Origin: a virus | Lineage: Duplodnaviria; Caudoviricetes | Reading direction: 5' to 3' (one strand) | Virus record (IMG/VR): IMGVR_UViG_2593339199_000002 | Coordinates: 35,905-99,904 of that record | DNA: 64,000 bases | Made by a program: the position numbers and the translations under genes | Notes under the pieces: generated by a model | Database searches by the model: none | What the model saw: only the letters and a program-made list of their open reading frames with translations | Told to the model about the DNA's origin: nothing | In this document: one piece after another, positions 564 through 53,739 of the stretch | How positions within the stretch are numbered: position 1 is the stretch's first letter | Layout of the letters: each line of letters starts with the position of its first letter

Positions 564-584
564 GCGCCTGACGGCGCTGTTCAT
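564..584 (+). promoter_or_regulatory. TGAC-loop hairpin motif copy 1
   Basis: GCGCC-TGAC-GGCGC-TG-TTCAT. Confidence 0.8.
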
Positions 585-640
585 CTCGATGTATCATTCG
601 TGCATCAAGAAGCTATTGACGCTATACGTGGCACAGGAGA

Positions 641-661
641 GCGGCTGACGCCGCATTTCAT
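641..661 (+). promoter_or_regulatory. TGAC-loop hairpin motif copy 2
   Basis: GCGGC-TGAC-GCCGC-AT-TTCAT. Confidence 0.8.
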
Positions 662-698
662 CTTGAGGCTAAACTACGTGCAAGGAGAGATGTTTATC

Positions 699-1079
699 AT
701 GCAAGCGACTGTTAATGCGACTATTACCGAGATCAATAAGCTCACCTGGAAGGTTGAAGGCGTGCATACGGTTTATGTGCGTGCAATCCGTGATGCTGTG
801 GATCCATGGTTCAACTACTATATCCTTGATTCCTTGGAATCTGAACGTGTCCTGCATTCTGTTGATGACCATGATTCCTTCCCTGATGATCAGGCGATGA
901 ATGAGGCACTTGCATGGGCAGTGCTCTATGCAGAAGGTGGTATCGAGGACGATAGCATCAATGAAAGTGCTACGTGCGAGGAAGGCGACATGGACGATTA
1001 CGATGCTCGTGAGGAAGGTCCCTTCGGTGGTGCCTTTGCTGACTGGGATGATTACTATCGTTACATTGGTGCTATCTAG
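699..1079 (+). CDS. Acidic hypothetical protein
   Basis: AAGGAG RBS at 682-687; start 690 or 699; D/E-rich C-terminus. Confidence 0.7.
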   Translation: MQATVNATITEINKLTWKVEGVHTVYVRAIRDAVDPWFNYYILDSLESERVLHSVDDHDSFPDDQAMNEALAWAVLYAEGGIEDDSINESATCEEGDMDDYDAREEGPFGGAFADWDDYYRYIGAI

Positions 1080-1102
1080 TATCTATGCTCTAGTATCTAT
1101 GC
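1075..1102 (+). repeat. 14-nt tandem duplication TCTAGTATCTATGC x2
   Basis: Seen directly, overlapping the stop codon. Confidence 0.8.
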
Positions 1103-1137
1103 TCTCTATATGCTTCATGCGTATAGGGAGCTTCTTT
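1101..1137 (+). terminator. Intrinsic terminator
   Basis: GCTCTCTATATGC/GCGTATAGGGAGC stem plus T-rich tail. Confidence 0.6.
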
Positions 1138-1173
1138 CCTTTCCCGCTCCCCCGCTTGCCCCTGCTGTGATGG

Positions 1174-1194
1174 GCGTCTGACGCCGCTCTTCAT
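1174..1194 (+). promoter_or_regulatory. TGAC-loop hairpin motif copy 3
   Basis: GCGTC-TGAC-GCCGC-TC-TTCAT (one stem mismatch). Confidence 0.7.
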
Positions 1195-1255
1195 CATGAT
1201 CGATCAAAATCGTCCATCCTTCCCCCTTCCTATTTCCTCTGAATGGAGGCTTGTT

Positions 1256-1552
1256 ATGAAACCGAATCAACCTGATGCGCTGGCTTTGTTCAGCAGCATC
1301 GTGCGTTTAATGCAGATGAGCGAAACGAATGAGGTGCCTATCGCTACATGCCATGCTATGCATTTGGAGTTTACGAATGACCGTATGTGCTATGACGAAG
1401 CAGTTGCTCTTATGGATATGCTTGTTGCTCGTAACTATCTATCTGTGCGTGTTGGGCAATGGGGAGTCAAGATGTTGTCTCCTACTTCTTATGGACATGA
1501 GCGATTAGCTTTGTATTCCTCTCCCGCTTCCCCGCCGCCCCTTCGGTCTTGA
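1256..1552 (+). CDS. Hypothetical protein, possible winged helix
   Basis: GGAGG RBS; ORF. Confidence 0.65.
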   Translation: MKPNQPDALALFSSIVRLMQMSETNEVPIATCHAMHLEFTNDRMCYDEAVALMDMLVARNYLSVRVGQWGVKMLSPTSYGHERLALYSSPASPPPLRS

Positions 1553-1553
1553 T

Positions 1554-1574
1554 ATGCCTGACGGCATGATGCAT
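1554..1574 (+). promoter_or_regulatory. TGAC-loop hairpin motif copy 4
   Basis: ATGCC-TGAC-GGCAT-GA-TGCAT, right after a stop codon. Confidence 0.75.
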
Positions 1575-1608
1575 TCCGATGAATAATCCCTACGTGGAGG
1601 TATGCTTG

Positions 1609-1818
1609 ATGAAACTTGAAAATATGCAGTCCCATGCGGATGCCCTTAATAATACGATTGCAAGCACATGCGACTATTGCGGTGCATGTGATACGTGTGC
1701 TGAATACATCTATCTTACGCAAGACATCGCTTTTGAGAAGCAGGTGCAGCGTGCTCCTTCTCATGTTCGCCTCGATCTCCGTCGGTCATATCATGAATCA
1801 GATTGGGTTCTTCTATAA
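1609..1818 (+). CDS. Small Cys-rich hypothetical protein
   Basis: GGAGG RBS; CDYCGACDTC. Confidence 0.6.
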   Translation: MKLENMQSHADALNNTIASTCDYCGACDTCAEYIYLTQDIAFEKQVQRAPSHVRLDLRRSYHESDWVLL

Positions 1819-1839
1819 GTGCCTGACGGCATGATTCAT
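1819..1839 (+). promoter_or_regulatory. TGAC-loop hairpin motif copy 5
   Basis: GTGCC-TGAC-GGCAT-GA-TTCAT, right after a stop codon. Confidence 0.8.
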
Positions 1840-1947
1840 TGTGATGTAATGTGCTACAATGTGCACATGGGCATATCTGATTATTAAGTTTCATCCGTAT
1901 TGCTTATTGCCTGATTATCATCCAGTACATAATGTGAGGTGATTGGC

Positions 1948-2133
1948 ATGGAGATTAATATGTATTCTGTTTCCGCCGATATGGATGCATCTGATTTGCA
2001 TACCGCTGCAATGCCGTATGGTCAAGCGAAGTTTATGTACGATCGCTGGAAGGCTGATCCGGAAGTGTTCAACGTTATTATGTATCGGCATGAAGGCGAC
2101 AAGAAGATCATGCTTGGACCAAGTGAGGTTTAA
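1948..2133 (+). CDS. Hypothetical protein
   Basis: GAGGTG RBS; ORF. Confidence 0.55.
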   Translation: MEINMYSVSADMDASDLHTAAMPYGQAKFMYDRWKADPEVFNVIMYRHEGDKKIMLGPSEV

Positions 2134-2135
2134 TT

Positions 2136-2384
2136 GTGGAGCTCGTTTCTGAATACTGTCATGTGCGTCAATCGTTTATGCTGCATGATATCGAGGTGCG
2201 TGTTGGTGACTATGTAGGTTTTACCTATACTTCTCCTACTTCCTCTACTCGGATATTAGGCTATGTTCATGGCTTTGATCTTTCCGCCGGCCTGATGTTT
2301 GTGATCATCTCTGGGAAGCATGCTGTGTATGGGTATTCCTTGGACCAGGTGAAGGATCTTTACTTTCCAGAGGAGGACGAATAG
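2136..2384 (+). CDS. Hypothetical protein
   Basis: GAGGT RBS; tightly coupled to neighbours. Confidence 0.6.
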   Translation: MELVSEYCHVRQSFMLHDIEVRVGDYVGFTYTSPTSSTRILGYVHGFDLSAGLMFVIISGKHAVYGYSLDQVKDLYFPEEDE

Positions 2385-2399
2385 TTGGGTAGGCATCAA

Positions 2400-2678
2400 A
2401 TGCGTAAGAAACTCCGTCATGGCGGAGAGTTATCCATTTTCTCATGGATCGGCCTGCTGGTTTTTGCATGCATCGCTTTATCGTTTCATGCAACGCGCCT
2501 CGTTTTTATCAGCTTATTCGGAAGCATATTGATTTGCACGCTACTAGAGAAGCTGTATAAACGTGCGTTTCGCAAGGATCCCCCTCAAGCTCTCTTCTAT
2601 ACGTTATTGGTTTTATGCGCGGTTGGACTTGCGATTGCGTATATGGTGATTACGGATATGGATTCCTTGTTTTTGTAG
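2400..2678 (+). CDS. Small membrane protein
   Basis: Three hydrophobic segments; start 2385 or 2400. Confidence 0.6.
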   Translation: MRKKLRHGGELSIFSWIGLLVFACIALSFHATRLVFISLFGSILICTLLEKLYKRAFRKDPPQALFYTLLVLCAVGLAIAYMVITDMDSLFL

Positions 2679-2681
2679 CTG

Positions 2682-2720
2682 AGTCACACTGCTCTTATCT
2701 AGGGCAGTGTGACTTTTTTT
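2682..2720 (+). terminator. Intrinsic terminator
   Basis: AGTCACACTGC/GCAGTGTGACT plus T run. Confidence 0.8.
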
Positions 2721-2763
2721 ATTCCCGCGCCCTCCCCCATTAATCGTGAAAGGTTGTGACCAC

Positions 2764-2973
2764 ATGAACATGAAACACCTGAAGGATCATGGCGTCTATA
2801 TCGGCTTCTACCGGGAGCATGGTTTCGTCTATGGTATCCCCAATGGCCAATTCGACCCTGTTACAAGAGAGAAACGTTTCAGCTTCTATGGGCTGCATAA
2901 TGGCAAGATCAATCATATCCGCAAGGATCAGCTTCATACGTTATTTACCGAAGAGGTTCTTACGGCCGGTTAG
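2764..2973 (+). CDS. Hypothetical protein
   Basis: ORF with AAGGTTG RBS. Confidence 0.5.
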   Translation: MNMKHLKDHGVYIGFYREHGFVYGIPNGQFDPVTREKRFSFYGLHNGKINHIRKDQLHTLFTEEVLTAG

Positions 2974-3050
2974 GACTATACGTTGCATTGATAGAGTGGT
3001 AAAATGTCCCTATGTCTTTTTGCCTATACTTTAATTGGGAGATGTTTAGT

Positions 3051-3404
3051 TTGAAATTCAAGATGATCGCGGCTGCTGCATTGGCGGCTGTATTGCTTGC
3101 GGGTTGTACGTCCAGAGAGGATAAAGCGGAGCAGTTCGCTATTGATGGCCTTATTGACTTCAATCACGGCGACGTGGAATCCTTCACCGTAGAAAGCTCC
3201 GGTATCGATCGGGATGATTACCTGATGACACGCTATCGATTCTATGGCACCGTCGTCTATAAGGGTAAGACGATACATAATGCATTTGCGATCGCCCAGT
3301 ACAATAAAACCACCGACGATCCCCGCTGGGCCTTTGGTGGATGTAACTGTGTCCAGCTCGAAGAAGCTTACGAGTCCGGAAACAGCACTGCAAGTAACCG
3401 TTAA
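3051..3404 (+). CDS. Lipoprotein
   Basis: Signal peptide with LLAGC lipobox. Confidence 0.75.
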   Translation: MKFKMIAAAALAAVLLAGCTSREDKAEQFAIDGLIDFNHGDVESFTVESSGIDRDDYLMTRYRFYGTVVYKGKTIHNAFAIAQYNKTTDDPRWAFGGCNCVQLEEAYESGNSTASNR

Positions 3405-3420
3405 GGCTGGGTGTATAATC

Positions 3421-3696
3421 ATGACGGAACAGCAACGCATTTCCCTCGATGTTTTCCGCGCCCTGGCTTTTCTTTGCCGTTCGCTATATCCCCTTTACGA
3501 TGGTGTGAACCGGTATGCATGGCGACAGCAGCATCTGCTTGATGGTACAGTAAGCATTAGCCATGATGACTTCGGTAAGATTGTTTATTCCCTCGTTACA
3601 CATGGCTATGTGGAATACCATGCAGGCAAAGGCTTGTATCGTCCTGCTACTACAGCCATTCAGCGTATGGAGGAGATCGATTCTGGAGCTCATTGA
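3421..3696 (+). CDS. Hypothetical protein, possible winged helix
   Basis: ORF; LVTHGYVEY pattern. Confidence 0.55.
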   Translation: MTEQQRISLDVFRALAFLCRSLYPLYDGVNRYAWRQQHLLDGTVSISHDDFGKIVYSLVTHGYVEYHAGKGLYRPATTAIQRMEEIDSGAH

Positions 3697-3979
3697 GTCA
3701 TACTTGGCCTTTATCCCCGGCGAGCTATACTACTTCGTTTGTGACAATATTGCCTATCGTGCTGTATACGTGAACTCGTTTGATGAGAATGATGGTGTGC
3801 CTTGCGGATTGCATCATCGCTTCTCCCCGTGCCTCCAGTTCGACGTGGGCCAGGACTATATGATCGGCAAGCAGTCGGTCATGTTCTTTCTCACGTTTCA
3901 GCTGCAGCAATGCTACATGGTTTCGCGGCCAAATGAATGGGAGCCCTATATCAAGCGACTATACGGAAGGTATGGCTAG
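3683..3979 (+). CDS. Hypothetical protein
   Basis: GGAGGAG RBS; start uncertain. Confidence 0.45.
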   Translation: MELIESYLAFIPGELYYFVCDNIAYRAVYVNSFDENDGVPCGLHHRFSPCLQFDVGQDYMIGKQSVMFFLTFQLQQCYMVSRPNEWEPYIKRLYGRYG

Positions 3980-4458
3980 GAGGAATCTGCTTGGAACTTG
4001 CGTCTGTCTATATAAGCATCAGCAGCTATGTCATTGGTGCGAATTATCATTTCCTCTTTTACGGCGCCCCTACTGCGGGCCGGCTGGAACGTGTCGATGG
4101 TCCATGCTTATATTTCAGCAATGTCTCCATGCATCATGAGGCTGAGGAATATGAGCTGATCCCTTCGGATTGCTTCCATCTTGATACGATTACGGAGCTG
4201 GAGATGATCGGCGATCTTCCTATCGATTACGGCCTGATCCGCGGAGATTTCTATCGTTTTGTGCATGCCGGCTACATCTACGAAGGCGTGTATACGCGCG
4301 AGCAGAATCGCAATGGCATGGTTATGTACGAGTTTCGGAAGCTGCTCTGCACGGATAAGGATGAGCGGACATCCAGCATGCAGACGTGTACCTTCTTCCC
4401 TCATGAGCTATTAAGTCTTACGCATCTTGGGGCGGCCCGTCCGAAGCCATATATCTGA
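3937..4458 (+). CDS. Hypothetical protein
   Basis: ORF; the true start is probably downstream of AGGAGG at ~3978. Confidence 0.55.
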   Translation: MGALYQATIRKVWLGGICLELASVYISISSYVIGANYHFLFYGAPTAGRLERVDGPCLYFSNVSMHHEAEEYELIPSDCFHLDTITELEMIGDLPIDYGLIRGDFYRFVHAGYIYEGVYTREQNRNGMVMYEFRKLLCTDKDERTSSMQTCTFFPHELLSLTHLGAARPKPYI

Positions 4459-4469
4459 ATACGAAAGGT

Positions 4470-4727
4470 TTGAATGATATGGAAGGCATTGGTCTCTTCC
4501 TAGCGATCGTAGCATGGATCGCCTTTATTTGTATTGTCGCTTCGGCCCGCCAGGGTCGTAACTTCGAAGTTATGAAGCCATGGATTCTGATGATCGGCAG
4601 CGCGACGTATTTCTTCTGCGGCCCGTTTCTGCTCGTGGTTAATGGCTGGTGGATCATAATGATCATCGGCGGAGGCATCTGGGGCTTGATCTATTTCATC
4701 AAATCTTCATCGAGAGGAAGTCGTTAA
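4470..4727 (+). CDS. Small membrane protein
   Basis: Hydrophobic segments. Confidence 0.6.
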   Translation: MNDMEGIGLFLAIVAWIAFICIVASARQGRNFEVMKPWILMIGSATYFFCGPFLLVVNGWWIIMIIGGGIWGLIYFIKSSSRGSR

Positions 4728-4728
4728 T

Positions 4729-4983
4729 ATGTGCGCATGTGGAACTCCGTTTCCTGTTGATTGCGATTGCCGTCCGGACTATGGGTATATCCCTGCTCAT
4801 CTGGATGCACGCGCAGATTTTGATTGGCATGCTCCTGAGCCTACGGATCACTTCTCCGAAGATGATGTAACGCCTGCCATCTTCCACGCCGCCTCATTGT
4901 TGGAGCAGCCGGCTGAAGATCCTTCGTTCTGCACATGCGGACTCGGCATTCAGCACCAGGACTGCTTCTGTCTCCCCTTCTAG
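4729..4983 (+). CDS. Small Cys-rich acidic protein
   Basis: Repeated CxC motifs; GAGG RBS. Confidence 0.55.
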   Translation: MCACGTPFPVDCDCRPDYGYIPAHLDARADFDWHAPEPTDHFSEDDVTPAIFHAASLLEQPAEDPSFCTCGLGIQHQDCFCLPF

Positions 4984-5021
4984 TAATAGATCGTGTATCA
5001 TGATGCTATGGGGGTTGAGAG

Positions 5022-5498
5022 ATGGCAGATTGGTATTTGGAAGATATTCATGGAGTACGACATAAAGCAGTCATCGCAGCTATGCAGCCTAATCAAGCCG
5101 CTAAAGCAAGATGGACGAAGGGCCTCAGCTGGCACAGGGAGCTCAAGGCAACGGACCGAGAAACATTCGTCCTTATTGACGATGCTACTGGCACCGCTCA
5201 AGGTGCCATTTCCCTGTCCGATGCTGGGGATCACGTCTACATACATTTGCTTGAGAATGCGCCACATAATCGCTCTGTTGCAAATCCAAGGCAATTTGTG
5301 AATGTATCACGGATCCTTATTGGTTTTGCCGGAGCAATCAGTAACTCCTTCGGATACGAGGGCTTCTTGGCTTTGACACCAAAGTCGTCGTTGGAGGATT
5401 ATTATGCCCGCCTGTTCAAGGCTTTCCCGCTTCCCGATCGTAAGATGGGCATACATGGTGTTGTCTCAAATCACTGGTACAGGGTATACTATACGTAG
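5022..5498 (+). CDS. GNAT-fold acetyltransferase-like protein
   Basis: VYIHLLENAPHN ... GFLALTPK ... LEDYY pattern. Confidence 0.55.
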   Translation: MADWYLEDIHGVRHKAVIAAMQPNQAAKARWTKGLSWHRELKATDRETFVLIDDATGTAQGAISLSDAGDHVYIHLLENAPHNRSVANPRQFVNVSRILIGFAGAISNSFGYEGFLALTPKSSLEDYYARLFKAFPLPDRKMGIHGVVSNHWYRVYYT

Positions 5499-5512
5499 AA
5501 GGGCGTGATCTT

Positions 5513-5758
5513 ATGGCGCGTAAAATATTGCACGGTGTCCAAAATGCGAAAGGACAACCTATTCGAGTAACGGTTGGAACTGCTCGTGTAAAAGAGACAA
5601 TCGTTGATCTTGAAAGGCTTGAGATGATTGACCCTCGTGGTATCCATACGGATCCAAGTGGTCGCGATGGCCATACGCCTGAATCTCGGGCAGCTATGAC
5701 CGAGTTCATCCGTAAATGTAAATCCGGCGAAATTGAAATGAAACCAATCGAACTATAG
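5513..5758 (+). CDS. Small protein paired with the GNAT gene
   Basis: ORF followed by a terminator. Confidence 0.65.
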   Translation: MARKILHGVQNAKGQPIRVTVGTARVKETIVDLERLEMIDPRGIHTDPSGRDGHTPESRAAMTEFIRKCKSGEIEMKPIEL

Positions 5759-5768
5759 TATTTCCTTG

Positions 5769-5798
5769 AAGCACTCACATTATGTGGGTGCTTTTTTT
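5769..5798 (+). terminator. Intrinsic terminator
   Basis: AAGCACTCACAT/ATGTGGGTGCTT plus T run. Confidence 0.8.
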
Positions 5799-5857
5799 GT
5801 TGTCCAAAATGCCTCCATCGGGCAGGCAGCTGAGACTTAATACCACTGGAGGTATTG

Positions 5858-6130
5858 ATGATGATTACGAAACATAAAATGCCCATCGCCGTTATTGGCC
5901 TGCTTATCCTATTCTCCGCGGTCATCTGGCGCAACGTGCAGTCTGATTTCAACAATGTCACCTGGAAGCAATACATAGTCGGATCCGGCGACACCATGTG
6001 GAGCATTGCGCAAACGTCAACGGTGGATACAAATACGCGCGACATTGTTGCGGTCATGCAGGACTATAACGAGATGCATAACGTTAATCTTCATCCCGGT
6101 GATGTAATCTTGGTCCCGATGTCCAAATAA
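5858..6130 (+). CDS. Membrane-anchored LysM protein (YneA-like architecture)
   Basis: N-terminal TM, then YIVGSGDTMWSIA...N...LHPGDVILVP. Confidence 0.8.
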   Translation: MMITKHKMPIAVIGLLILFSAVIWRNVQSDFNNVTWKQYIVGSGDTMWSIAQTSTVDTNTRDIVAVMQDYNEMHNVNLHPGDVILVPMSK

Positions 6131-6148
6131 CCTGACGGCTCGATTATT
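6128..6148 (+). promoter_or_regulatory. TGAC-loop hairpin motif copy 6 (degenerate)
   Basis: TAACC-TGAC-GGCTC-GA-TTATT; weak stem. Confidence 0.5.
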
Positions 6149-6177
6149 TACGATATTAATTTCGGAGGTTGATATTC

Positions 6178-6615
6178 ATGCATATTAAATTGACATGTTG
6201 TTTCGAATGCGGCCCGACCAGGCTGATCCCGCCCCATCTTACTAATAACGAGATCAATTGGATTCGGTGTGCCGGCTGCCGCGAGAAAAATCGGGCGTTC
6301 TATCGCGACTTCTGGAGCGAATATGTTGATGCCATGAATAATGGAGATCGTTTAGTTGATGACGGTCGTATTGTTGCTCGCATCAATGGTGAGCATTACG
6401 TGATCGGATTCGAAGATGAAAAAGGCTATTTCCGCGGTCACGGCGGTAACACTTTCGTCCTTCGGTTTACGAGCGGTCCGCACGCCGGACAGACCTATCG
6501 CACGACGAATCTCTGGGCTCAAGGCAAGATCAGCCATGGGTTCGAGAAGATCCTCACAGATAATGCTGTCTTCGTGCCGCAGGTCTTTGCCTCACTTCTT
6601 GAGGCGCTGGCCTGA
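6178..6615 (+). CDS. Hypothetical phage-type protein with two CxxC motifs
   Basis: GGAGG RBS; its TGA stop is the loop of motif copy 7. Confidence 0.7.
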   Translation: MHIKLTCCFECGPTRLIPPHLTNNEINWIRCAGCREKNRAFYRDFWSEYVDAMNNGDRLVDDGRIVARINGEHYVIGFEDEKGYFRGHGGNTFVLRFTSGPHAGQTYRTTNLWAQGKISHGFEKILTDNAVFVPQVFASLLEALA

Positions 6616-6628
6616 CGGCCTATTTCAT
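6608..6628 (+). promoter_or_regulatory. TGAC-loop hairpin motif copy 7
   Basis: TGGCC-TGAC-GGCCT-AT-TTCAT. Confidence 0.75.
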
Positions 6629-6725
6629 TTTAACATGCGGGCCCCTTCCCGCACTGTAGCATGGTAGTGCCATGCCTGATGATGGCTTCTCTAAGCCGAA
6701 ACAGTAATGCAAGGGGCTGGTCAAT

Positions 6726-6953
6726 ATAGATAAAAAGATCAAAAAGACAAAGCTGTCCCTGGACGATCGCCTGTACATTCTTCAGACGAATCTCCTCCCG
6801 CCTGAGTTACGAATCAAGCTACACCAGGCTGATACCTTGTATTTTCAAAATCAGGACGAACGTGCTGCCGCTCTCATAGCAGAGATCGAGGAATCCTGTC
6901 GTGAGAAGGGCATCACTTTGCATCGCCCCCCATTCTTTCCACTTGGAGACTAA
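6726..6953 (+). CDS. Hypothetical 75-aa protein with probable ATA start (absent from ORF track)
   Basis: AAGGGG RBS, in-frame TAA at 6705 upstream, open frame IDKKIKKTKLSLDDR... fills the gap. Confidence 0.45.
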   Translation: MDKKIKKTKLSLDDRLYILQTNLLPPELRIKLHQADTLYFQNQDERAAALIAEIEESCREKGITLHRPPFFPLGD

Positions 6954-7137
6954 TACATATGCGTGAAATTATTTTGGTTCGTGTAGTTAATGAGGGTAAA
7001 CCTCGTCCGCGTTTAGCTTTGCCTGCTCTCCCTCCTATTCAACCGTTGAAGCTTCTTCCCCGCAATCCGCAGTCTAAACTGTTTGCGTACCAACCAAGCG
7101 ACAACTCTCATATTGGCCAACTAATCGATCTGAAAGG

Positions 7138-7323
7138 ATGATTCTCATGATACAACGATTCTTTATTCGTCCGGCCGGCGCCGACTTCGCGATCATTGTG
7201 GTCGTGGACGGCGCGGAGCAGGAAGTCGAGCGCGGCGGCAAACCTCTGATCAGAGGCAAGTTCCTCCACTATGTGAAGGATCGGAATGCCCTTATTGAGA
7301 AAGTGGGGGCTGTTGCATCATGA
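7138..7323 (+). CDS. Hypothetical protein
   Basis: AAAGGA RBS; ORF. Confidence 0.5.
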   Translation: MILMIQRFFIRPAGADFAIIVVVDGAEQEVERGGKPLIRGKFLHYVKDRNALIEKVGAVAS

Positions 7324-7875
7324 AGTGGAAATGGCGCATTGGGATCGGGCTTCTACTCCTGTTCACGATGCGCTTCTGGTTGCATTGGATACTCTTGCTG
7401 GGCCTGATCTTCATGATCGGCTGCATTGTCATCAAAGTTCTTGGCGATGCCCACGAACTGCTCGGTTTTATCAGGCGCAAGCGATGACGCTTCTCCCTTG
7501 CCCCCTCCAATGACCATACTATGAGTCCCCCCGAAGGGGGCAATGCCGTCCGCTAAATGGACAGACTCCGTGCAACCTATGTAAGTATGTATCATGGAAA
7601 TGATCGACCAATCAGTGTTACTTGATTGACTGTCATGCGGCTTTATTCCATAGTGGAACATGCATCTTGTCATGGATCATGTTTCTTTGGGCTCCTGCCC
7701 TTTTTCCAATTCTGGAATCTTGTTGCATGATTCCTTGATTCTTGGTGGTCTGACATGATGCTTGATTAAAAGTGCCACTATATATATTACATAGTGGCAA
7801 ACTTGGGGTATTTGAACCCCAGTTTTCTTCCAATTGATGATTTCACATAATTGTCACATGTTGTTCGTATTTGTT

Positions 7876-7896
7876 CTGGCTGACGCCAAGGTTCAT
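7876..7896 (+). promoter_or_regulatory. TGAC-loop hairpin motif copy 8
   Basis: CTGGC-TGAC-GCCAA-GG-TTCAT. Confidence 0.75.
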
Positions 7897-7914
7897 TTTG
7901 GAGGTGGTTATCCC

Positions 7915-8448
7915 ATGTTCGTCGTACAATATCGCGATCATACGTCCTTCGATGAACTCCGTGTGGATCTGGCGCAGACTGAATCAGATTTGAACAGCTT
8001 TTGGCACCATGACGCATCGGTAATCTCAATTCAGCATGTCTGGGAGATTCCAGATGATGCGCAGTTATTTCGCCTGATTGTTGCAGGCAGCCGTGACTTC
8101 AACGACTATCCCCTACTCCGCTCCAAGCTGGACTTCTTTCTCCAGCATCAGCCGTATACGATCATTGTGTCCGGCGCGGCCCGCGGTGCTGATTCGCTCG
8201 GTGAAGATTATGCTAAAGAACGCGGCTTGCCGATCGACCAGTTCCCTGCTGACTGGAATCCCCTCCACTTAAAAGGCAAGTTGGATCGCAGTGCAGGGTA
8301 TCGTCGGAACGAACAGATGGCGAAAGTTTCACAAGGGTGCGTTTGCTTCTGGGACGGAACTTCACGCGGCACCGAGCATATGATTAATCTCGCCAACAAA
8401 TACAAACTGCAGACCCGCGTGGTCAAATATGAGGAGGAGCTTGTTTGA
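7915..8448 (+). CDS. SLOG/YspA-like (DUF2493) nucleotide-binding protein
   Basis: LIVAGSRDF, IVSGAARGAD, AGYRRNEQM, FWDGTSRGT. Confidence 0.85.
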   Translation: MFVVQYRDHTSFDELRVDLAQTESDLNSFWHHDASVISIQHVWEIPDDAQLFRLIVAGSRDFNDYPLLRSKLDFFLQHQPYTIIVSGAARGADSLGEDYAKERGLPIDQFPADWNPLHLKGKLDRSAGYRRNEQMAKVSQGCVCFWDGTSRGTEHMINLANKYKLQTRVVKYEEELV

Positions 8449-8894
8449 AAGAGGTAGCGATCTATACTGATGGTGCGTGCAGCGGCAATCCCGGTCCTGG
8501 TGGCTGGGGTGCCGTTTTAATTTATGGCGATATTATCGGTAAATTTAACGGCTGCGAGGCATATTCCACGAATAATCGCATGGAGCTGATCGCCGTGATC
8601 CAAGCCCTTCGGTTACTGAATGAGCCCTGCCGCGTCCGGATTTACAGCGACTCTGCCTTCATCGTAAATTGTTTCAAGCACAAATGGCACGAGCATTGGG
8701 TGGCCCACAACTGGCGGAACACGCAAAAGCGCAAGGTTGAGCACCGCGAGCTATGGGAGCAGTTGCTCAACCTGAACAAGCTGCATCAAGTCACCTATCA
8801 TAAAGTCGACCGGGATGCCGGCGTGCAGCATAATGTAACCGCTGATCAGCTTGCACGAGAAGCCATCATTATGTATCGCAAGACAATTGCTTAA
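8445..8894 (+). CDS. rnhA: Ribonuclease HI
   Basis: YTDGACSGNPGPGGWG, TNNRMEL, YSDS, NxxADxLA. Confidence 0.92.
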   Translation: MKEVAIYTDGACSGNPGPGGWGAVLIYGDIIGKFNGCEAYSTNNRMELIAVIQALRLLNEPCRVRIYSDSAFIVNCFKHKWHEHWVAHNWRNTQKRKVEHRELWEQLLNLNKLHQVTYHKVDRDAGVQHNVTADQLAREAIIMYRKTIA

Positions 8895-8943
8895 TCCATT
8901 TTGTATCCGAATGTATACATATTGTAACTAATTAATGCAAAAG

Positions 8944-8973: not shown

Positions 8974-8988
8974 GTATATCCGAGCTTA

Positions 8989-9762: not shown

Positions 9763-9770
9763 TTGTATTA

Positions 9771-9811: not shown

Positions 9812-9821
9812 TTGGATTGAT

Positions 9822-11639: not shown

Positions 11640-12248
11640 ATGCGGAAGCAGATTTTCGGTGTTTTTTGGGCGGCGGCCATGATGGCGCCTGGTATCACCA
11701 TGAATTTCGTACCAAAACTAGCGGCGGCCGGCATCTTCGCCGCGGCCATCGCGCTTAACGCCTACATTTTAGGGAACATGACGTGGCAAAAGCATGCCAT
11801 GACCGATAAATTGACGGGTCTGCGTAACAGGGCAGCACTCGATCAACAGCTGAAGGTATATCGGAAGCGCCAGGTGTCGGTGCTCATGATCGACATCGAT
11901 AATTTCAAGTCCATCAACGATTCCTTCGGACACGCGATAGGGGATGGGGTCCTTTATGATGTGGCCAATACGATGATGAGCCAAATTCGAGGTGCTGACA
12001 TCTACCGCTATGGGGGAGAGGAGTTCACGATCATCTTGCCTGGATTGCAGATACGAGAGAGCTATGCGATCGCAGAGCGCCTTCGGAAAGCCGTAGAGCA
12101 ACACGTTCACGTTTATGGAAGGCCCGTGACGATTTCAATCGGCGTAGCCAGCTGCTCAGATATCAAGCTGGCGATGAAGCAGGCGGATGAATGCCTGTAC
12201 GAATCCAAGCAACGAGGGAGGAATGCCACAACTGCTTGTGCATGTTGA
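11640..12248 (+). CDS. Membrane-anchored diguanylate cyclase (GGDEF)
   Basis: DKLTGLRNR, DIDNFKSINDSFGHAIGD, YRYGGEEF, KQRGRN; hydrophobic N-terminus. Confidence 0.92.
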   Translation: MRKQIFGVFWAAAMMAPGITMNFVPKLAAAGIFAAAIALNAYILGNMTWQKHAMTDKLTGLRNRAALDQQLKVYRKRQVSVLMIDIDNFKSINDSFGHAIGDGVLYDVANTMMSQIRGADIYRYGGEEFTIILPGLQIRESYAIAERLRKAVEQHVHVYGRPVTISIGVASCSDIKLAMKQADECLYESKQRGRNATTACAC

Positions 12249-12267
12249 GCCTGACGGCTCGTTTCAT
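12247..12267 (+). promoter_or_regulatory. TGAC-loop hairpin motif copy 9
   Basis: GAGCC-TGAC-GGCTC-GT-TTCAT. Confidence 0.85.
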
Positions 12268-12326
12268 ATTAGAATCTGACCGCCATCGTGCGGTCTTTTT
12301 TTATTCCATTGAAGGGAGGAAGCCGC

Positions 12327-13081: not shown

Positions 13082-13250
13082 TTTTGAAAACCTGTCGCAT
13101 GACGAGGCCGTCGAAAGACTTCGCAAGCTCGATAAAAAGGCGATGGAATGCCCAGGCATGCATGTCGAGATGGGCGGCTGGTACAAGCGCTGGAAGTTGG
13201 ATGAGGCGCTTCGCGCAGCCTATCCGGATCATTACACCAATGGAGCCTGA
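13029..13250 (+). CDS. Small Zn-binding hypothetical protein
   Basis: GAGGAGG RBS; CxxC; TGA stop is the loop of motif copy 10. Confidence 0.55.
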   Translation: MTMVTTTCSLCRTDVTLDFENLSHDEAVERLRKLDKKAMECPGMHVEMGGWYKRWKLDEALRAAYPDHYTNGA

Positions 13251-13263
13251 CGGCTCGTTTCAT
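13243..13263 (+). promoter_or_regulatory. TGAC-loop hairpin motif copy 10
   Basis: GAGCC-TGAC-GGCTC-GT-TTCAT, identical to copy 9. Confidence 0.85.
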
Positions 13264-13296
13264 GCTGATCTACATATTAGAGAGGAGATCTCCATC

Positions 13297-13685: not shown

Positions 13686-13706
13686 GCGCCTGACGGCGCG
13701 ATTCAT
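13686..13706 (+). promoter_or_regulatory. TGAC-loop hairpin motif copy 11
   Basis: GCGCC-TGAC-GGCGC-GA-TTCAT. Confidence 0.85.
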
Positions 13707-13744
13707 CTTAGCTAATATCCAATTTCCCGAGGAGGAAACTAACC

Positions 13745-24170: not shown

Positions 24171-24191
24171 GTCGCTGACGCTCCTATTCAT
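24171..24191 (+). promoter_or_regulatory. TGAC-loop hairpin motif copy 14
   Basis: GTCGC-TGAC-GCTCC-TA-TTCAT; partial stem, same variant as copy 17. Confidence 0.7.
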
Positions 24192-24232
24192 TTTACATGA
24201 TTCAAAACCCAAAACCAGAAAGGTGATGCACA

Positions 24233-32035: not shown

Positions 32036-32056
32036 GCCGCTGACGCGGCATCTCAT
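32036..32056 (+). promoter_or_regulatory. TGAC-loop hairpin motif copy 15
   Basis: GCCGC-TGAC-GCGGC-AT-CTCAT. Confidence 0.85.
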
Positions 32057-32084
32057 ATCGAATTATAAATGAGGAGGAATCATC

Positions 32085-33775: not shown

Positions 33776-34824
33776 TGTCTAATCTCGACTTCGAGCCGTT
33801 TTATGATTTTCTGCATCAGGAGCTGGATGCCTTGTCTGTCGATAAACCAACCCTCACGATCAATCCTGCCTATGAGCAGGCCCAAAGCAAGAAGCAGCGT
33901 CGATCGCTGCGTAAATTCCTGGAGGTGCTAAAGATGCCTGTTCCAAGTCCAAAGCCGACGTTCGCCGGTGAGACGGATTACATTAATACCGACCTTCTGC
34001 CGCGCGTCATTATCGAGCCGGAGTTCCTGTTCGACTTCGATGATAAGCAGAAGAAGAAAATCGCATTCAATCTGGACGTTGATCCTGAGGACAAGCAAAA
34101 CATCCTGCTCAACGCCACTTTTCATAACGGCTACGTCGGTCAGGCCAATCTGAGCTTGGTGCATTTGGAAAAAGAGCTATCCAACATCATGCATGGCGAC
34201 CGCTCGAAGCGCCTGGAGCACAGTCCGCTGTTCAAGGATGCCATCGGTAACATGCTCCGCGAGTTCACGTACAACTACCGGGCCCGCGGCGAAATGTTTA
34301 TCCAGCTCGGCGTCCAGTATGAAATGAGCGCCGGTCTTGGTATCATCCGCGACACCAAGACCGATCAGGATGTCGGCACATTCGAGAGCTTCTTTTATCG
34401 GACTGATGCCAAAGACAAGTCTGAATACATCATCGGCGATGTTATCTTGTCGGGCCGGACGGAGAAGGATCTGGAGGATGTAAGACGATTCGTGTATTAT
34501 TTCTTCGATCTGAATGAAGGGCGCATCTATTCAATCGAGCCGGTCAAATGGGGCACGACTCAGCACGGTGAAGTGACCGACTTCTCCATCAAGCTGCATG
34601 ACGTGAACATCCACATCGAGAATATGGAGGACGATCATCCGAAACTGGAGCTTGTGCGTCAAGCTCAGGAGACCAAATCCGTCATCCGCTCGTTCAAGGC
34701 GGATCCGCTGTTCGACGAGGAGTTCCAACGCTTCAAGGAGCCGCGCATGGCGCTTATTAAGTCCAGCCAAGAGTCGGCCAAGAAGCAGAAAATGGTCAAC
34801 ATGTTTGCGGATATCGATCTATAG
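33775..34824 (+). CDS. Hypothetical protein
   Basis: 349-aa ORF; TAATG coupling. Confidence 0.8.
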   Translation: MSNLDFEPFYDFLHQELDALSVDKPTLTINPAYEQAQSKKQRRSLRKFLEVLKMPVPSPKPTFAGETDYINTDLLPRVIIEPEFLFDFDDKQKKKIAFNLDVDPEDKQNILLNATFHNGYVGQANLSLVHLEKELSNIMHGDRSKRLEHSPLFKDAIGNMLREFTYNYRARGEMFIQLGVQYEMSAGLGIIRDTKTDQDVGTFESFFYRTDAKDKSEYIIGDVILSGRTEKDLEDVRRFVYYFFDLNEGRIYSIEPVKWGTTQHGEVTDFSIKLHDVNIHIENMEDDHPKLELVRQAQETKSVIRSFKADPLFDEEFQRFKEPRMALIKSSQESAKKQKMVNMFADIDL

Positions 34825-34844
34825 TCGCTGACGCGACAATTCTT
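34824..34844 (+). promoter_or_regulatory. TGAC-loop hairpin motif copy 16
   Basis: GTCGC-TGAC-GCGAC-AA-TTCTT. Confidence 0.8.
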
Positions 34845-34869
34845 TTAAACAAAACCGAGGAGGCTTATC

Positions 34870-43381: not shown

Positions 43382-43546
43382 ATGAATATCGTACAGGACC
43401 AGAGTGATCTGATCATCAAAGAATATGATGACTTCCTGGAATATCGGACTGATCGAGATACGATGGAGCTTGAAGGATATGAGTATCTGCTCATCTCAAC
43501 ATGCAATTCCCGCGGTAAGTATGTTGTGAACTACATGCGCCGCTGA
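43382..43546 (+). CDS. Small hypothetical protein
   Basis: AAGGGG RBS; TGA stop is the loop of motif copy 18. Confidence 0.45.
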   Translation: MNIVQDQSDLIIKEYDDFLEYRTDRDTMELEGYEYLLISTCNSRGKYVVNYMRR

Positions 43547-43559
43547 CGCGGCAGTTCAT
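43539..43559 (+). promoter_or_regulatory. TGAC-loop hairpin motif copy 18
   Basis: GCCGC-TGAC-GCGGC-AG-TTCAT. Confidence 0.85.
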
Positions 43560-43585
43560 CAAAGTTAATTACATGGAGGTGTCTC

Positions 43586-51500: not shown

Positions 51501-51756
51501 GTCTTACGAGGGCTACGACAGCTACGAGATGAATCCACTCGGCATCGAGGAGGTTCGCCGAATCTCTGCCGGCCTGGTGTCGAAGATGCGCGACGACGTG
51601 GCATCCGGCAAGATCTCGGTCGAGAAGCTTGACAGCTATCTGGCACATATCGAAGACATGTTCGTCGAATTTGCCAATGCGAAAGAAACGAACAAAGGCC
51701 TCAAGAAGGCAGATCGTATCGTAGAGGGACAAGGGATGCTGGTCTTGGAGTTCTAA
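48517..51756 (+). CDS. Large SF2 (SNF2-like) helicase of ICE/plasmid type
   Basis: GEPGSGKT, DEVHEYK, LTGTLLGG, VGLDL, QASRRSWRI. Confidence 0.88.
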   Translation: MAELIANEIYKVELFGRGVNSSAYCDLMVYDADPRKREVYLLNAINTDIKMKMLAADMDQVKTGSVKRAEGNVYDKPHVQLTIYTRNKNMFDMHESKIDDMTNMLFVAKSAKPNIKERQEWRARRDNGEQVGLPPEELVLAWDGNLRDQLYRVLDDRYNTPMLEEWKDYIVDMCLEYGYFRQLRTMSFGRHYDLEAGVLQVTEEQLEEIISEGIKSYELNFAIMEDSTVEPVLDQCETLDAYLEHFAGALGQRIQENSTLRFDPRNEDHHRALYECNLHANKNGITGLFPPQADVVMGVAKTLQEEKYCFIIGEPGSGKTVMGSTSAHVAEAIQGGKDTPAPYRALVLSPGIMVEKWMREIQERIPGAKVYQISRWTDVKKLEKAPYRPKEIEYYVMSSDASKQTYPMEAIADYRLGINREVTQNVGNNDVRDALERGEHPRIRFQKDTVYVNGSPVHRVDLGPTAMVCPRCGGPLQESKQYYAGEHFFEQKRDGKWGMAMKAENYHCNNVVETKFLPKEDIKDPKEDMQKCGFVLWQPKRLSPASLERKVSPAWYINKRLRRGFFKYLIADEVHEYKSGESDRATAFGQLVNHTEKQILLTGTLLGGMARDIFYLIARLDPRKLQKESINFNDESVFVERYGVFEHTITLRNERRNRKKKQQPGVSPQVFPRFLMSNCAFIELSDLGYALPPYREQPIFVDMDDDLHQAYHELETAVGDRMRENVFHGGMKHVATYITKMYQYVDLPFGHGPMMYDDRGTERLLHQPRNLPDDYTPPKYNALLSYLDERIDERGKKVLLYVRFTGSKNRYAADTWLYDKLKADGYNVGILRSSGQYDGHKFPKQEDREAWLRQKMEKHNWDVLICNSRLVSVGLDLLMFPCINFYQMDYSAYNYMQASRRSWRIKQTEDVEVSAMVYRETIQSDVLENIAKKIDAAMALQGKFSEEGLRAMADSGDGINALAKKLMSEGRLDDISSIEDRWKRINASYEQMQNSSYEGYDSYEMNPLGIEEVRRISAGLVSKMRDDVASGKISVEKLDSYLAHIEDMFVEFANAKETNKGLKKADRIVEGQGMLVLEF

Positions 51757-51951
51757 GACTGGCTTCCTGAAAGGGGGTGATAAGCGTGCAAGAGGAAAAC
51801 GCAAAACCTAAGCGCAAGCGCGGACCCGCCCCCGTTATTGTTCCAAAACAAGTATCCGATTGGATTAAGCAAACCAATACCTGTGGCAAGGTCAACAGCT
51901 GGAAAGTTGGCGGCGGATTGTCTCAGCACCGGTGAGAGGGGAGAGGCTATT

Positions 51952-52224
51952 ATGCATTTCGTAAGCATTATTACTGACGGTGGCATCATCAGCTCGGTTG
52001 ATCTCTATGATGGCGACGAGCTGAACCAGGCCATCGGAGATATGGAGCTTCATTTCTATGGACATAGCTTTGATGGCGAGACAGATGATGCCCGCATTTT
52101 CTTTGTGCCTGCTACAGTGCCTGCTACAGGCCAAACTGGCGTGGAGATCTACTCGTTCGATCCCAATAACCCGGCTAAAGCCCGAGCTCGTGCCATAGAG
52201 CGCTTTAGCCAGTTACGGCCTTGA
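51952..52224 (+). CDS. Hypothetical protein
   Basis: GAGG RBS. Confidence 0.55.
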   Translation: MHFVSIITDGGIISSVDLYDGDELNQAIGDMELHFYGHSFDGETDDARIFFVPATVPATGQTGVEIYSFDPNNPAKARARAIERFSQLRP

Positions 52225-52466
52225 TAATGTTCAGGAAGCTGCGTCCGCGGTTCATTCGCGCAAAAACGGTGCTGTTCTTGTGGTGGACCTGGTTCAACGG
52301 TGAGCAATGCTTCATCGCGTTTGAATGCAGTCCGCCGATCTGGTGGCTGCCGGCTTATCAGAAGGGAAGCAACATGCGTCGGGTTGGCTTCCTATGGTTC
52401 GCCATTTGGTTCGGCAAGGCGCCCGTTGCTGGCTTGTACAAAATCAAGGAGGTGCTCGATGGCTAA
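52221..52466 (+). CDS. Small Trp-rich hypothetical protein
   Basis: Overlap-coupled ORF. Confidence 0.45.
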   Translation: MIMFRKLRPRFIRAKTVLFLWWTWFNGEQCFIAFECSPPIWWLPAYQKGSNMRRVGFLWFAIWFGKAPVAGLYKIKEVLDG

Positions 52467-53346
52467 GAAGAAGCTCGATAAGGATGCGCTGTATCGGATG
52501 GAGCGTTTCACGCCAGAGCAGATGATCATCGTTCAGCGTAGCATCTATGACTACGGTCAAGCGATCGGCGGCATGCCGATGCATCATTCCGAGGTTTACG
52601 AGAAGCGGGGCTGGCTGCTGCCTTTCTTGTTCGCCTACGACGATCTGCTGCACGGCCGCTGGTCGTACTGGCAAGACATTCTGCAGAAGGGCACGATCGT
52701 CGGCAGCGGGCCGATTCCGCGGCTTGATTTCATCCAATCGGCAGACGAGCGGCTCAATCCAGCGATGAAGATGCTCAATGACTGTTTATCACAGCATTGG
52801 ACCCACGGTGCGCTGGATGATTTTGCGGATTGGCTCCTGTGGGGCTTTGCGGCTACGAATGAGCCTCCAAAGATCGATCCCCAGGTGAATGAGCATTTCT
52901 ATCGCACTTTTGATCTGTTCCTGGTTCTGGATCGCCCTTACGACTACCTGTCGATGGTGCTATCAGAGCAAACCAGCCGCGGCTACAAGTCAGGGCTCGG
53001 CTACTTCCCGACACCAATGAGCATCACAATGCTGATGGCCGAGATGACGATGGCCGGATCGGATCCAGAGAAGGCGAAGAAGCAGTCGTTCATGGAACCG
53101 TGCGTCGGCTGCGGTGCGATCATGCTGCCGATGTCGAACTATGTGCTCCGTGGCTTCGCGTCGGACATCAGCATGATTGCCGTGAAGCTGTGCAAGATTC
53201 AAATGTACTGGTACGCGCCTTGGTTCGCGTTTCATCCAGAAAGCCTGCAGGGCTTCAGCGATGAGGAAGCGATTAAGCTGGTTCCATCGTTCGGCGGCCG
53301 CGGCATCGTCGAGGGTCAGCTCGCACTCGACCTTGTGGGGGTGTGA
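52459..53346 (+). CDS. N6-adenine methylase-like protein
   Basis: GYFPTPMSI, EPCVGCGAIML, ASDIS; no NPP motif seen. Confidence 0.7.
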   Translation: MAKKKLDKDALYRMERFTPEQMIIVQRSIYDYGQAIGGMPMHHSEVYEKRGWLLPFLFAYDDLLHGRWSYWQDILQKGTIVGSGPIPRLDFIQSADERLNPAMKMLNDCLSQHWTHGALDDFADWLLWGFAATNEPPKIDPQVNEHFYRTFDLFLVLDRPYDYLSMVLSEQTSRGYKSGLGYFPTPMSITMLMAEMTMAGSDPEKAKKQSFMEPCVGCGAIMLPMSNYVLRGFASDISMIAVKLCKIQMYWYAPWFAFHPESLQGFSDEEAIKLVPSFGGRGIVEGQLALDLVGV

Positions 53347-53393
53347 CATGATCTTTATCTACTATCAAGAACGATAACAAGGAGGATTCACAC

Positions 53394-53699
53394 ATGAATG
53401 CAGTTGTACAAAAATTAATTGGCACGATGTCGGTAACCAAGGATCAGATTCTGGAGATGGTGGAGCTGCTGCCGGACGGCGAGACGCTGGTACCTTTTGC
53501 CGTGAATGGCGTCGCAAATGACGGCACACCGCTCAATCTCGTCGGTTACTTCTCCGAGGAAGCCGCGAAGCAGAATCTTACGGAAGACAAGGTAGATGCG
53601 TTCAGCGTGGCCTTGCTCCGCGAAGTCGAGAAACCGATCCCGGCCGGAGCCGTCAAGACGGTATCTATGTACGGTATCCGTATCGCTGTCAAAGGTTAG
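53394..53699 (+). CDS. Hypothetical protein
   Basis: AAGGAGG RBS. Confidence 0.7.
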   Translation: MNAVVQKLIGTMSVTKDQILEMVELLPDGETLVPFAVNGVANDGTPLNLVGYFSEEAAKQNLTEDKVDAFSVALLREVEKPIPAGAVKTVSMYGIRIAVKG

Positions 53700-53717
53700 T
53701 TCATCCGAGGGCGTACT

Positions 53718-53739
53718 CCGCCTGACGGCGGGTTTCCAT
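53718..53739 (+). promoter_or_regulatory. TGAC-loop hairpin motif copy 19
   Basis: CCGCC-TGAC-GGCGG-GT-TTCCAT. Confidence 0.8.

Follow-up and report, generated by a model that had tools for sequence, protein, structure and literature searches.

The closest described counterparts of the motif treated here are the early promoters P1–P3 of coliphage N4, which are read by the virion RNA polymerase (PMC4496689, PMC13037366, PMC13434306). Their hairpins carry GGA or GAA loops (PMC13037366). Extrusion needs a closing G:C pair together with a G on the 5′ and an A on the 3′ side of the loop, and the template-strand hairpin withstands both probes and single-stranded DNA-binding protein (SSB), the adenines between hairpin and start acting as a ruler (PMC4496689). 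The present study concerns a dispersed mini-hairpin of the form C-TGAC-G that recurs 19 times in a 64,000-nucleotide (nt) stretch of viral DNA, hereafter the window, which comprises bases 35905–99904 of a 99,904-bp Caudoviricetes record (IMG/VR IMGVR_UViG_2593339199_000002, here G000) of the provirus class that is about 51% complete. We put the probability at about 60% that this motif is the promoter of the phage's own two-barrel RNA polymerase, recognised as a hairpin of the template strand; its role as a promoter, the polymerase as its reader, recognition of the template hairpin and the start point are what we infer from sequence comparison. An initial annotation of the window had proposed a hairpin-promoter regulon of this kind, with a structured template strand, an element-encoded polymerase and N4 as its analogue, and the comparative evidence supports that proposal.

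Two further systems are close to the window by their polymerase. For Bacillus thuringiensis phage 0305phi8-36, Hardies, Thomas and Serwer (2007, PMC2147016) reported a 21-bp phage-specific promoter motif with 14 candidates, sited ahead of middle genes where the DNA is non-coding, and proposed it as the target of the Pfam05183 polymerase of that phage, no sigma factor being encoded. In the accessible portion of that paper the motif is not termed a hairpin; the word 'hairpin' appears once, for a terminator, and 'palindrom' does not appear. We found no experimental test of this promoter proposal in the literature. For YonO of phage SPbeta, the available text of Forrest et al. (2017, PMC5467207) states that the promoter sequence is undetermined and describes a single mapped start, located upstream of yonK and driving the late structural operon; our literature search gave no later answer on YonO-type promoters or hairpins after 2017. 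In the same superfamily, gp66 of the crAss-like phage phi14:2 is reported to transcribe single-stranded or denatured but not duplex DNA, and QDE-1 to transcribe single-stranded DNA (ssDNA); according to the available part of that report, the early transcripts of gp66 were found to share no common motif (bioRxiv 2020.03.07.982082). Thermus phage P23-45 gp96/gp64 are likewise assigned to the two-barrel polymerase superfamily (PMC10770324).

Like the N4 promoters, the window motif combines a short stem (5–7 bp), a G...A loop on the template strand closed by C:G and an A-rich template spacer to the presumed start, and the phage encodes a polymerase without a sigma factor; a relative from Bacillus thuringiensis shows the same c(GGA)g tip as the GCGGAGC of N4. 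The N4 enzyme, however, is T7-like, single-subunit and packaged in the virion, and it reads three promoters, whereas the polymerase encoded next to the window motif is predicted to belong to the unrelated two-barrel YonO/QDE-1 class, the window has 18–19 sites, the loop is mostly of 4 nt (3 nt in N4) and about 17 nt, instead of 11, separate the loop from the presumed start. The window motif may work like the N4 promoters, yet it is not a member of the N4 system. With 0305phi8-36 it shares a repeated gene-strand motif in non-coding gaps before non-structural genes, next to a Pfam05183 polymerase and with no sigma factor detected; sequence, loop, box and closing pair (T:A there) differ, the published logo not being part of this comparison. 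YonO, too, is a single-chain two-barrel polymerase of a temperate Bacillales phage and falls into the same PHROG family, but the window protein, with 1141 amino acids (aa), is too diverged from it for tblastn, and the motif lies before early and replication genes. The preference of gp66 for single strands fits a promoter made of structured DNA. The comparisons support two points as new, a putative hairpin promoter tied to a polymerase class unrelated to that of N4 and a structured version of the promoter candidates of 2007.

Copies, placement and covariation of the motif

The motif spans about 30 nt and consists of a 5-bp stem, a TGAC loop closed by a C-G pair, two further nucleotides, a TTCAT box, a T-rich triplet and purines at positions 25–26. 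Each of the 19 starts listed by the initial annotation holds a copy of the form N4-C-TGAC-G-N4 (N4, any four bases) on the + strand, and C5, T6, G7, A8, C9 and G10 are invariant in 19 of 19 copies. The box is conserved at T17 (17/19), T18 (18/19), C19 (18/19), A20 (14/19) and T21 (18/19). In the tail, every copy has a purine at position 25 and 17 have one at position 26, A30 is present in 14 of 19, and no conservation was seen upstream of the stem. The window contains 31 matches to the pattern SCTGACGS (26 on the +, 5 on the − strand) against 9.18 ± 3.36 in shuffled sequences, an approximately threefold excess that none of 100 shuffles reached. The copies are listed below together with the preceding polymerase gene and the next open reading frames (ORFs); bits are scores of the covariance model described further on, and orthologs refer to the related genomes G001, G002, G003 and the plasmids of B. 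thuringiensis and P. urinalis introduced in the third section.

1..138, + strand: 3′ end of the predicted two-barrel RNA polymerase gene (gene at record 32617–36042, equal to L002:14617–18042), 1141 aa
564..590, + strand: copy 1, GCGCC-TGAC-GGCGC with TTCAT box and purine pair; 36.7 bits
641..667, + strand: copy 2, 77 nt after copy 1 and 23 nt before the start codon at 678; 36.3 bits
1174..1200, + strand: copy 3, with one T·C mismatch; a 13-bp terminator-like hairpin (1101–1131) lies 43 nt before it; 30.1 bits
1554..1580, + strand: copy 4, right after the stop codon at 1552 and before the ORF at 1606
1819..1845, + strand: copy 5; 36.9 bits
6128..6154, + strand: copy 6, weak on the + strand, its A·C being G·T on the template; before the ORF at 6178; 25.5 bits
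6608..6634, + strand: copy 7, after which no + strand ORF is called for 650 nt
7876..7902, + strand: copy 8, with a GGAGG ribosome-binding site that begins at motif position 25; before ORF 7915; G001 ortholog at 114260
12247..12273, + strand: copy 9, followed by a terminator-like hairpin at 12278–12295 and by the ORF at 12327, which has a PHROG RNase H match
13243..13269, + strand: copy 10, before the ORF at 13297
13686..13712, + strand: copy 11, before the ORF at 13745; orthologs in G001 (120493) and G003 (56586); 37.6 bits
16904..16932, + strand: copy 12, forming the tip of a 10-bp stem that a T run follows, where the SNF2 gene ends; TTCAT is missing, probable terminator; 24 bits
22483..22509, + strand: copy 13, before the 3D-domain gene (22689); G001 ortholog at 125213
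24171..24197, + strand: copy 14, GTCGC-TGAC-GCTCC, before the + strand gene 24233–25078; G001 and P. urinalis have this variant at the equivalent position
32036..32062, + strand: copy 15, before the ORF at 32085; orthologs in G001 (135466) and G002 (54618)
34824..34850, + strand: copy 16, before the AAA ATPase gene at 34870; orthologs in G001 (139313) and the B. thuringiensis plasmid (L310:36529)
40192..40218, + strand: copy 17, variant stem, before the UvrD/PcrA helicase gene at 40240; G001 ortholog at 146348
43539..43565, + strand: copy 18, before the DnaG primase gene at 43586; orthologs in G001, G002, the B. thuringiensis plasmid and P. urinalis
53718..53744, + strand: copy 19, before the DnaN clamp gene at 53765; G001 ortholog at 158957 with the same stem and loop TATC

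A covariance model was trained on 26 sequences (18 window copies and 8 copies from one relative) and used to search both strands of the whole record (103,000 bases). It recovered the 18 training copies as well as copy 12, which had not been part of the training set (24 bits), and the next match scored 14.2 bits. No match lay on the − strand and none in the left 36 kb of the record; across the record the model sees the motif on the + strand only, in agreement with the strand bias first described. The stems vary while their pairing is kept, as had been claimed: 15 distinct stems were found among the 19 window copies, and in the 26-sequence alignment 89.2% of 130 stem cells are paired, compared to 62.4 ± 3.2% after shuffling (0 of 500 shuffles reached this value). 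Stem cells altered on both sides number 33 against 11.1 in shuffled alignments, and the covariation score amounts to 0.627 against 0.193, falling to 0.147 or less when the partner was slid. Because the stems vary while pairing is kept, recognition of the duplex by a dimeric protein is unlikely. Copies 6, 14 and 17 pair poorly on the + strand, as also noted before.

According to crude gene calls, about 88.5% of window 1–55100 is coding. The siting of the copies between genes or on stop codons was borne out, as 12 of the 19 hairpins lie outside called ORFs and six overlap the last 1–10 bases of the upstream ORF; the one exception falls inside a doubtful 63-codon minus-strand ORF. The siting just before genes held as well, since 12 of the 19 hairpins end 23–50 nt ahead of the next + strand start codon. 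That the copies are weak intrinsic terminators, or insulators placed where genes end, is an explanation that we regard as very improbable. The six copies that overlap a stop codon region would suit it, several copies were caught by a terminator scan, and copy 12 consists of a 10-bp stem with a T run. The 5-bp stems of the motif, however, are too short for terminators and most are not followed by a T run, the tail reading TTCAT-N3-RR and not oligo-T; in addition, 12 copies stand well past the upstream stop codon and just before a start codon, and terminators with long stems exist nearby. Copy 12 is thus to be separated from the others: all 19 listed copies are present, but that at 16909 is the tip of the 10-bp stem, lacks the TTCAT box and is, judged by these features, probably a terminator rather than a promoter.

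Some of the gaps behind the copies contain features of their own. About 45 nt after copy 7, window 6676–6705 resembles a hammerhead core, with CTGATGA, a 5-bp stem GGCTT/AAGCC and GAAA; Rfam gave no gathering-score match in the window and none at E ≤ 1 in 6500–7300. Between copy 13 and the 3D-domain gene, about 190 nt (22497–22690) are free of ORFs and may be a leader or a small RNA.

Structured strand and loop class

The two strands of the hairpin were compared over 64 copies from six genomes, that is 320 stem cells, of which 281 are Watson-Crick pairs. On the template strand the loops read GTCA (19 copies), GACA (11), GATA (10), GTTA (7), GTAA (1), GGA (11) and GGAT (5), and GCGA in the 15 hairpins of 0305phi8-36; the c(GTCA)g tip that the initial annotation had read from the template strand is present in 19 of 19 window copies. 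These template-strand loops fit GNA, GNNA or GNAB, GGAT of G003 and plasmid pSCDB14 being the GNAB form, and the rule fails on the coding strand. The loop-closing pair is C:G in all genomes except 0305phi8-36, where it is T:A. The d(cGNABg) hairpins are a named stable class. We know of no stable or otherwise described loop class to which the coding-strand or RNA forms UGAC, UGUC, UAUC, UAAC, UCC, AUCC and UCGC belong. DNA mini-hairpins of the types GCGNAGC and GCGNNAGC are reported to be extraordinarily stable owing to a sheared G-A pair, and GAAB loops still fold (PMC13037366).

The cells that deviate from Watson-Crick pairing are distributed unevenly between the strands: 26 of the 320 place two pyrimidines opposite each other on the coding strand, and hence two purines on the template strand, while 2 show the reverse. 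A recurrent variant, GTCGC-loop-GCTC[CT], precedes the counterparts of ORF 24233–25078 in three genomes and would form tandem G·A/A·G pairs on the template strand. This variant may represent a distinct promoter subclass. The poorly pairing stem variant was found at the following places.

Window: 24171 and 40192
G001: 127118, 135466, 139313 and 149878
L309: about 28717

A signal that acts in RNA, within long + strand transcripts, could be a nut- or put-like antitermination site, a processing site or a 5′ stabiliser or translation element, and we consider it unlikely. Its orientation along the genes and its position 23–50 nt before start codons would suit such a signal, covariation is equally compatible with an RNA hairpin, and pairs compatible with G·U are slightly commoner on the + strand (7 against 4). 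In favour of antitermination in particular, a terminator-like hairpin follows copy 9, and sites of this type are more frequent than expected (30 against 15.9 ± 4.8). On the other hand, the complements of the loops all obey the rule for DNA mini-hairpins, and the recurrent stem variant would be tandem U·C/C·U as RNA. Conservation continues through a T-rich spacer to a purine, as in a promoter, tandem copies 77 nt apart open the region, and the structural-gene arm is without a copy. Furthermore, most copies are not followed by a terminator, and Rfam contributed nothing at gathering score.

Folded ssDNA could also serve replication or recombination, for instance as a loading site for primase or primosome of the G4/ssiA kind, which we judge to be improbable. 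Such mini-hairpins are reported from the priming sites of phage G4 and ssiA (PMC13037366), the element encodes DnaG, DnaN, RecA and helicases according to Pfam, and all copies lie on one strand. Priming sites, however, need neither a fixed short distance to ribosome-binding sites and start codons nor a place in front of orthologous genes, and the relatives share the conserved T-rich spacer and purine.

Adjacent polymerase and related genomes

An element-encoded unusual RNA polymerase, which the initial annotation had thought of as a possible reader, was found directly upstream of copy 1. Its gene ends at window base 138, and copy 1 begins 425 nt further downstream. The 1141-aa product is a predicted two-barrel RNA polymerase of the YonO/QDE-1 type. 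It matches Pfam RdRP PF05183 (E 1.2e-7, 31.3 bits, cut-off 23.8) and phrog_8308 (E 2.3e-14), a family that among 14 control genomes had a match only in B. subtilis, the host of SPbeta YonO. The sequence GGADxDGD is invariant in seven homologues of the polymerase (G642, G643, A644, D645, D647, G648 and D649) and contains the catalytic aspartate triad DxDGD. A Foldseek search with an AlphaFold model of the protein, mediocre by its predicted local distance difference test (pLDDT 61), returned QDE-1 or plant RDR2 as all of the top 17 matches (E 1.3e-9 to 5.3e-7, template modelling (TM) scores 0.23–0.44), the next match having E 0.2; with this pLDDT and these TM scores, the likeness of fold is weak support. 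Sequence searches of the PDB with the polymerase and its profile gave nothing relevant. A tblastn search with the polymerase against the phage collection gave no match, neither to SPbeta YonO, which is too diverged, nor to the 0305phi8-36 polymerase.

Other transcription proteins were sought in this record and in G001, a relative that is 100% complete. Sigma70_r2 was absent from both and Sigma70_r4_2 gave nothing above cut-off; the absence of a sigma factor is firm for G001 only, because the record of the window is about 51% complete. A T7-type RNA polymerase (PF00940) was not matched in G000 or G001, in a search that matched no control genome either. Among 50 proteins scanned with Pfam, no sigma, helix-turn-helix, antiterminator, N, Q or NusG-like family was detected.

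Nineteen plasmid records matched the polymerase, 8 of them over its full length, and these full-length relatives sit on 200–260-kb plasmids of Paenibacillus and Bacillus. One-way mini-hairpins on the polymerase strand, downstream of the gene, were present in each of the eight genomes with a full-length homologue that we examined. Seven syntenic relatives and the more distant 0305phi8-36 share one design of short hairpin, T-rich spacer and purine, with loops that vary by genome.

G001, P. rhizovicinus plasmid (228,841 bp, complete): 15 copies and 0 on the other strand; TGTC or TATC loop, CATTC-N-N, N3, GA
G002 (194,705 bp): 7 copies; GCC-T[GA][TA]C-GGC, T-rich spacer, GAAG; pattern 17 against 3 by strand, controls 7 and 7
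G003 and B. licheniformis pSCDB14: 5 against 0; GCCCC-ATCC-GGGGC, N-TTT-N3-4, GA
B. thuringiensis plasmid: 14 against 1, of which 11 with box; covarying 5-bp stems, triloop TCC, N-TGT-N-T-N-TGA
P. urinalis plasmid: 7 copies; TAAC or TTAC loop, CTTTWTGA
Alicyclobacillus shizuokensis contig: L003:13159, 13550 and 14682; CCC-TNC-GGG-AT triloops, template loops GGA, GTA and GAA
Phage 0305phi8-36 (more distant): 15 against 0, on the strand of its Pfam05183 ORF; NNCGT-TCGC-ACGNN, T-rich spacer, GTA

The Alicyclobacillus polymerase is the closest homologue (40% identity), and its three hairpins lie within 1.7 kb after the gene, 10 kb downstream having been examined. Protein identities among the syntenic genomes range from 30 to 75%; the polymerase is 31–40% identical between genomes compared to 45–67% for other large proteins. 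Orthologous genes keep a copy at their front despite changed stems and loops, as seen for AAA, PcrA, DnaG, DnaN and ORFs 7915, 13745, 22689, 24233 and 32085. The TTCAT box is specific to the window genome and G001, and the spacer followed by a purine is the only tail feature common to all genomes. Applied to 1.31 Mb around 74 other loci, which did not include those of 0305phi8-36, the covariance model of the window found matches only in G001. A scan of IMG/VR with GCCTGACGGCNNNTTCAT hit 88 contigs, among the matches listed one each, which is chance level; with a G001-type pattern, several matches on one contig were found, among the matches listed, only on the contig of G001 itself. The 15 one-way hairpins of 0305phi8-36 are, by their arrangement, probably the same motif as the 14 candidates in the accessible text of Hardies et al. 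(PMC2147016). The proposed link between polymerase and motif is one that rests on adjacency, the lack of other transcription proteins and parallel divergence.

The least unlikely of the alternatives is a phage-specific promoter whose recognised form is not the hairpin, so that either the phage polymerase reads the duplex or a phage factor redirects the RNA polymerase of the host. Placement and orientation of the copies suit any promoter, a redirected host enzyme could not be excluded for 0305phi8-36 according to the available text of Hardies et al. (PMC2147016), and the many conserved proteins of unknown function provide possible factors. Reading of the duplex, however, would not lead one to expect stem covariation with free sequence, and the loop, which would take the place of a −35 element, becomes TGTC, TATC, TAAC, TCC or ATCC in relatives. 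A sigma-70-like form of this explanation can point to two copies that score 9 of 12 as sites of the CTGACG-18-TATCAT type. Sigma-70-like sites are not enriched in window 1–20000 (32 against 27.3 ± 5.0), and no sigma domain was detected. We rejected the sigma-70 interpretation, with CTGACG as −35 and a −10 element 18 nt further on, as just 2 of the 12 copies in window 1–20000 pass the 9-of-12 threshold and the hexamer is lost in relatives.

Proposed mode of transcription and layout of the element

If the motif is a template-hairpin promoter of the phage polymerase, the host RNA polymerase would first express the phage enzyme; a sigma-70 scan upstream of the polymerase gene showed no + strand site. 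The inverted repeat would then leave the duplex, through extrusion driven by supercoiling and perhaps aided by SSB, or in DNA opened by replication, and the template strand would fold into a mini-hairpin with a stem of 5 bp and c(GTCA)g at its tip. The polymerase would bind this hairpin together with the A-rich template stretch, which is the T-rich TTCAT-N-TT on the coding strand, and synthesis would start at the conserved purine about 11 nt past the stem (motif positions 25–26). Eighteen such starts would drive small early genes as well as genes of replication and nucleotide metabolism over 53 kb.

The initial annotation had placed +1 at the A of TTCAT, an assignment that we abandoned on finding the box not conserved in relatives. 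We place the start at position 25 instead, because the spacer followed by a purine alone is common to all genomes; the conserved purine pair, about 9–14 nt after the stem, is the likelier start point. If the copies are promoters, a start further downstream is excluded, because in copy 8 and its G001 ortholog the ribosome-binding site begins at this purine.

Several observations weigh against the polymerase-read template hairpin. The coding strand has more G·T wobbles than the template strand (7 against 4), mostly in the outermost pair, and nearest-neighbour DNA folding energies, summed over 34 copies, give the template strand no more than a slight advantage (−144.0 against −130.8 kcal/mol). 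Stems of 3–5 bp extrude with difficulty, and to our knowledge extrusion has been shown possible only for N4. The hairpin at 12278–12295 (6-bp stem and T7) begins 18 nt past the stem of copy 9, hence within 20 nt, and a transcript begun at this motif must therefore read through it, an arrangement that suits an antitermination signal too. According to the covariance model the structural arm has no copy, whereas the SPbeta polymerase transcribes late structural genes. In SPbeta itself no comparable hairpin was found in the yonN–yonK gap or elsewhere in 50 kb, a weak negative, as the published start (168 coordinate 2225998) was not placed on the phage record. The motif-bearing genomes are all syntenic relatives, so that their co-occurrence with the polymerase does not count as independent of common descent, and another conserved protein could be the reader; the stems of G002 and G003 are nearly constant and show no covariation of their own. 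The model of the polymerase has pLDDT values below 50 at residues 572–668, the catalytic segment. For window 400–8400, finally, one DNA run, possibly that from which the record stems, is the only sequencing run with a match listed, and no RNA run is listed.

The comparison bears on a long-standing question, namely how two-barrel phage polymerases of the YonO class, which work without a sigma factor, select the sites at which they start. At somewhat less than even odds, polymerases of the YonO/QDE-1 class in general may find their promoters as extruded template-strand mini-hairpins, convergent with N4, with a loop identity that co-evolves with the polymerase. It yields a rule that can be tested, namely a covarying 5-bp stem, a G...A loop on the template strand, a T-rich spacer and a purine start, and the natural loop variants come paired with diverged polymerases. 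If true, this would give the YonO/QDE-1 enzymes their first promoter rule, and DNA-hairpin promoters would be known from a second system, with a polymerase from an unrelated family. There would also be a hint that the ability to recognise structured ssDNA is ancestral and shared with the RNA interference polymerases. The rule would further provide a set of short orthogonal polymerase-promoter pairs and explain the gene-expression plan of a widespread family of phage-plasmids of about 200–260 kb in Paenibacillus and Bacillus.

The left 31 kb of the record are encoded on the minus strand and comprise a Mu-like portal, a large terminase, a beta-helix tailspike-like protein and an Alp7A/ParM-like actin; from 31.6 kb on, nearly all genes are on the + strand. 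The element is a large phage-plasmid (provirus) and not a conjugative element, since portal and terminase genes are present and its relatives are plasmids, 18 of the 19 typed as non-mobilizable. These genes and the typing of the plasmids contradict the variant of the initial annotation in which the motif would act in a conjugative leading region or on incoming ssDNA, and a conjugative ssDNA promoter (Frpo/ssi) was rejected on the same grounds, to which the tailspike-like and actin-like partition genes add. Of the gene names given earlier, AAA, UvrD/PcrA, DnaG and DnaN were confirmed, but 'ssb' and 'Gam-like' were not; a ThiF-family gene is present as well. ORF 24233–25078 has no Pfam match, and the name SSB occurs only on position-equivalent genes in two annotated plasmids.

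The early and replication region contains a GGDEF diguanylate cyclase gene (window 11640–12248, Pfam E 5e-38). An island of minus-strand ORFs (257 aa, 51 aa and 284 aa; window 8989–11364) breaks this otherwise + strand region. A ThyX-family thymidylate synthase at window 37866–39548 is, with 560 aa and two matched stretches, long for its family. In the structural arm, ARAGORN detected a minus-strand tRNA array at L002:7654–8059 (record 25654–26059), which consists of tRNA-Cys, an odd tRNA with the 4-letter anticodon cgca and tRNA-Asn.

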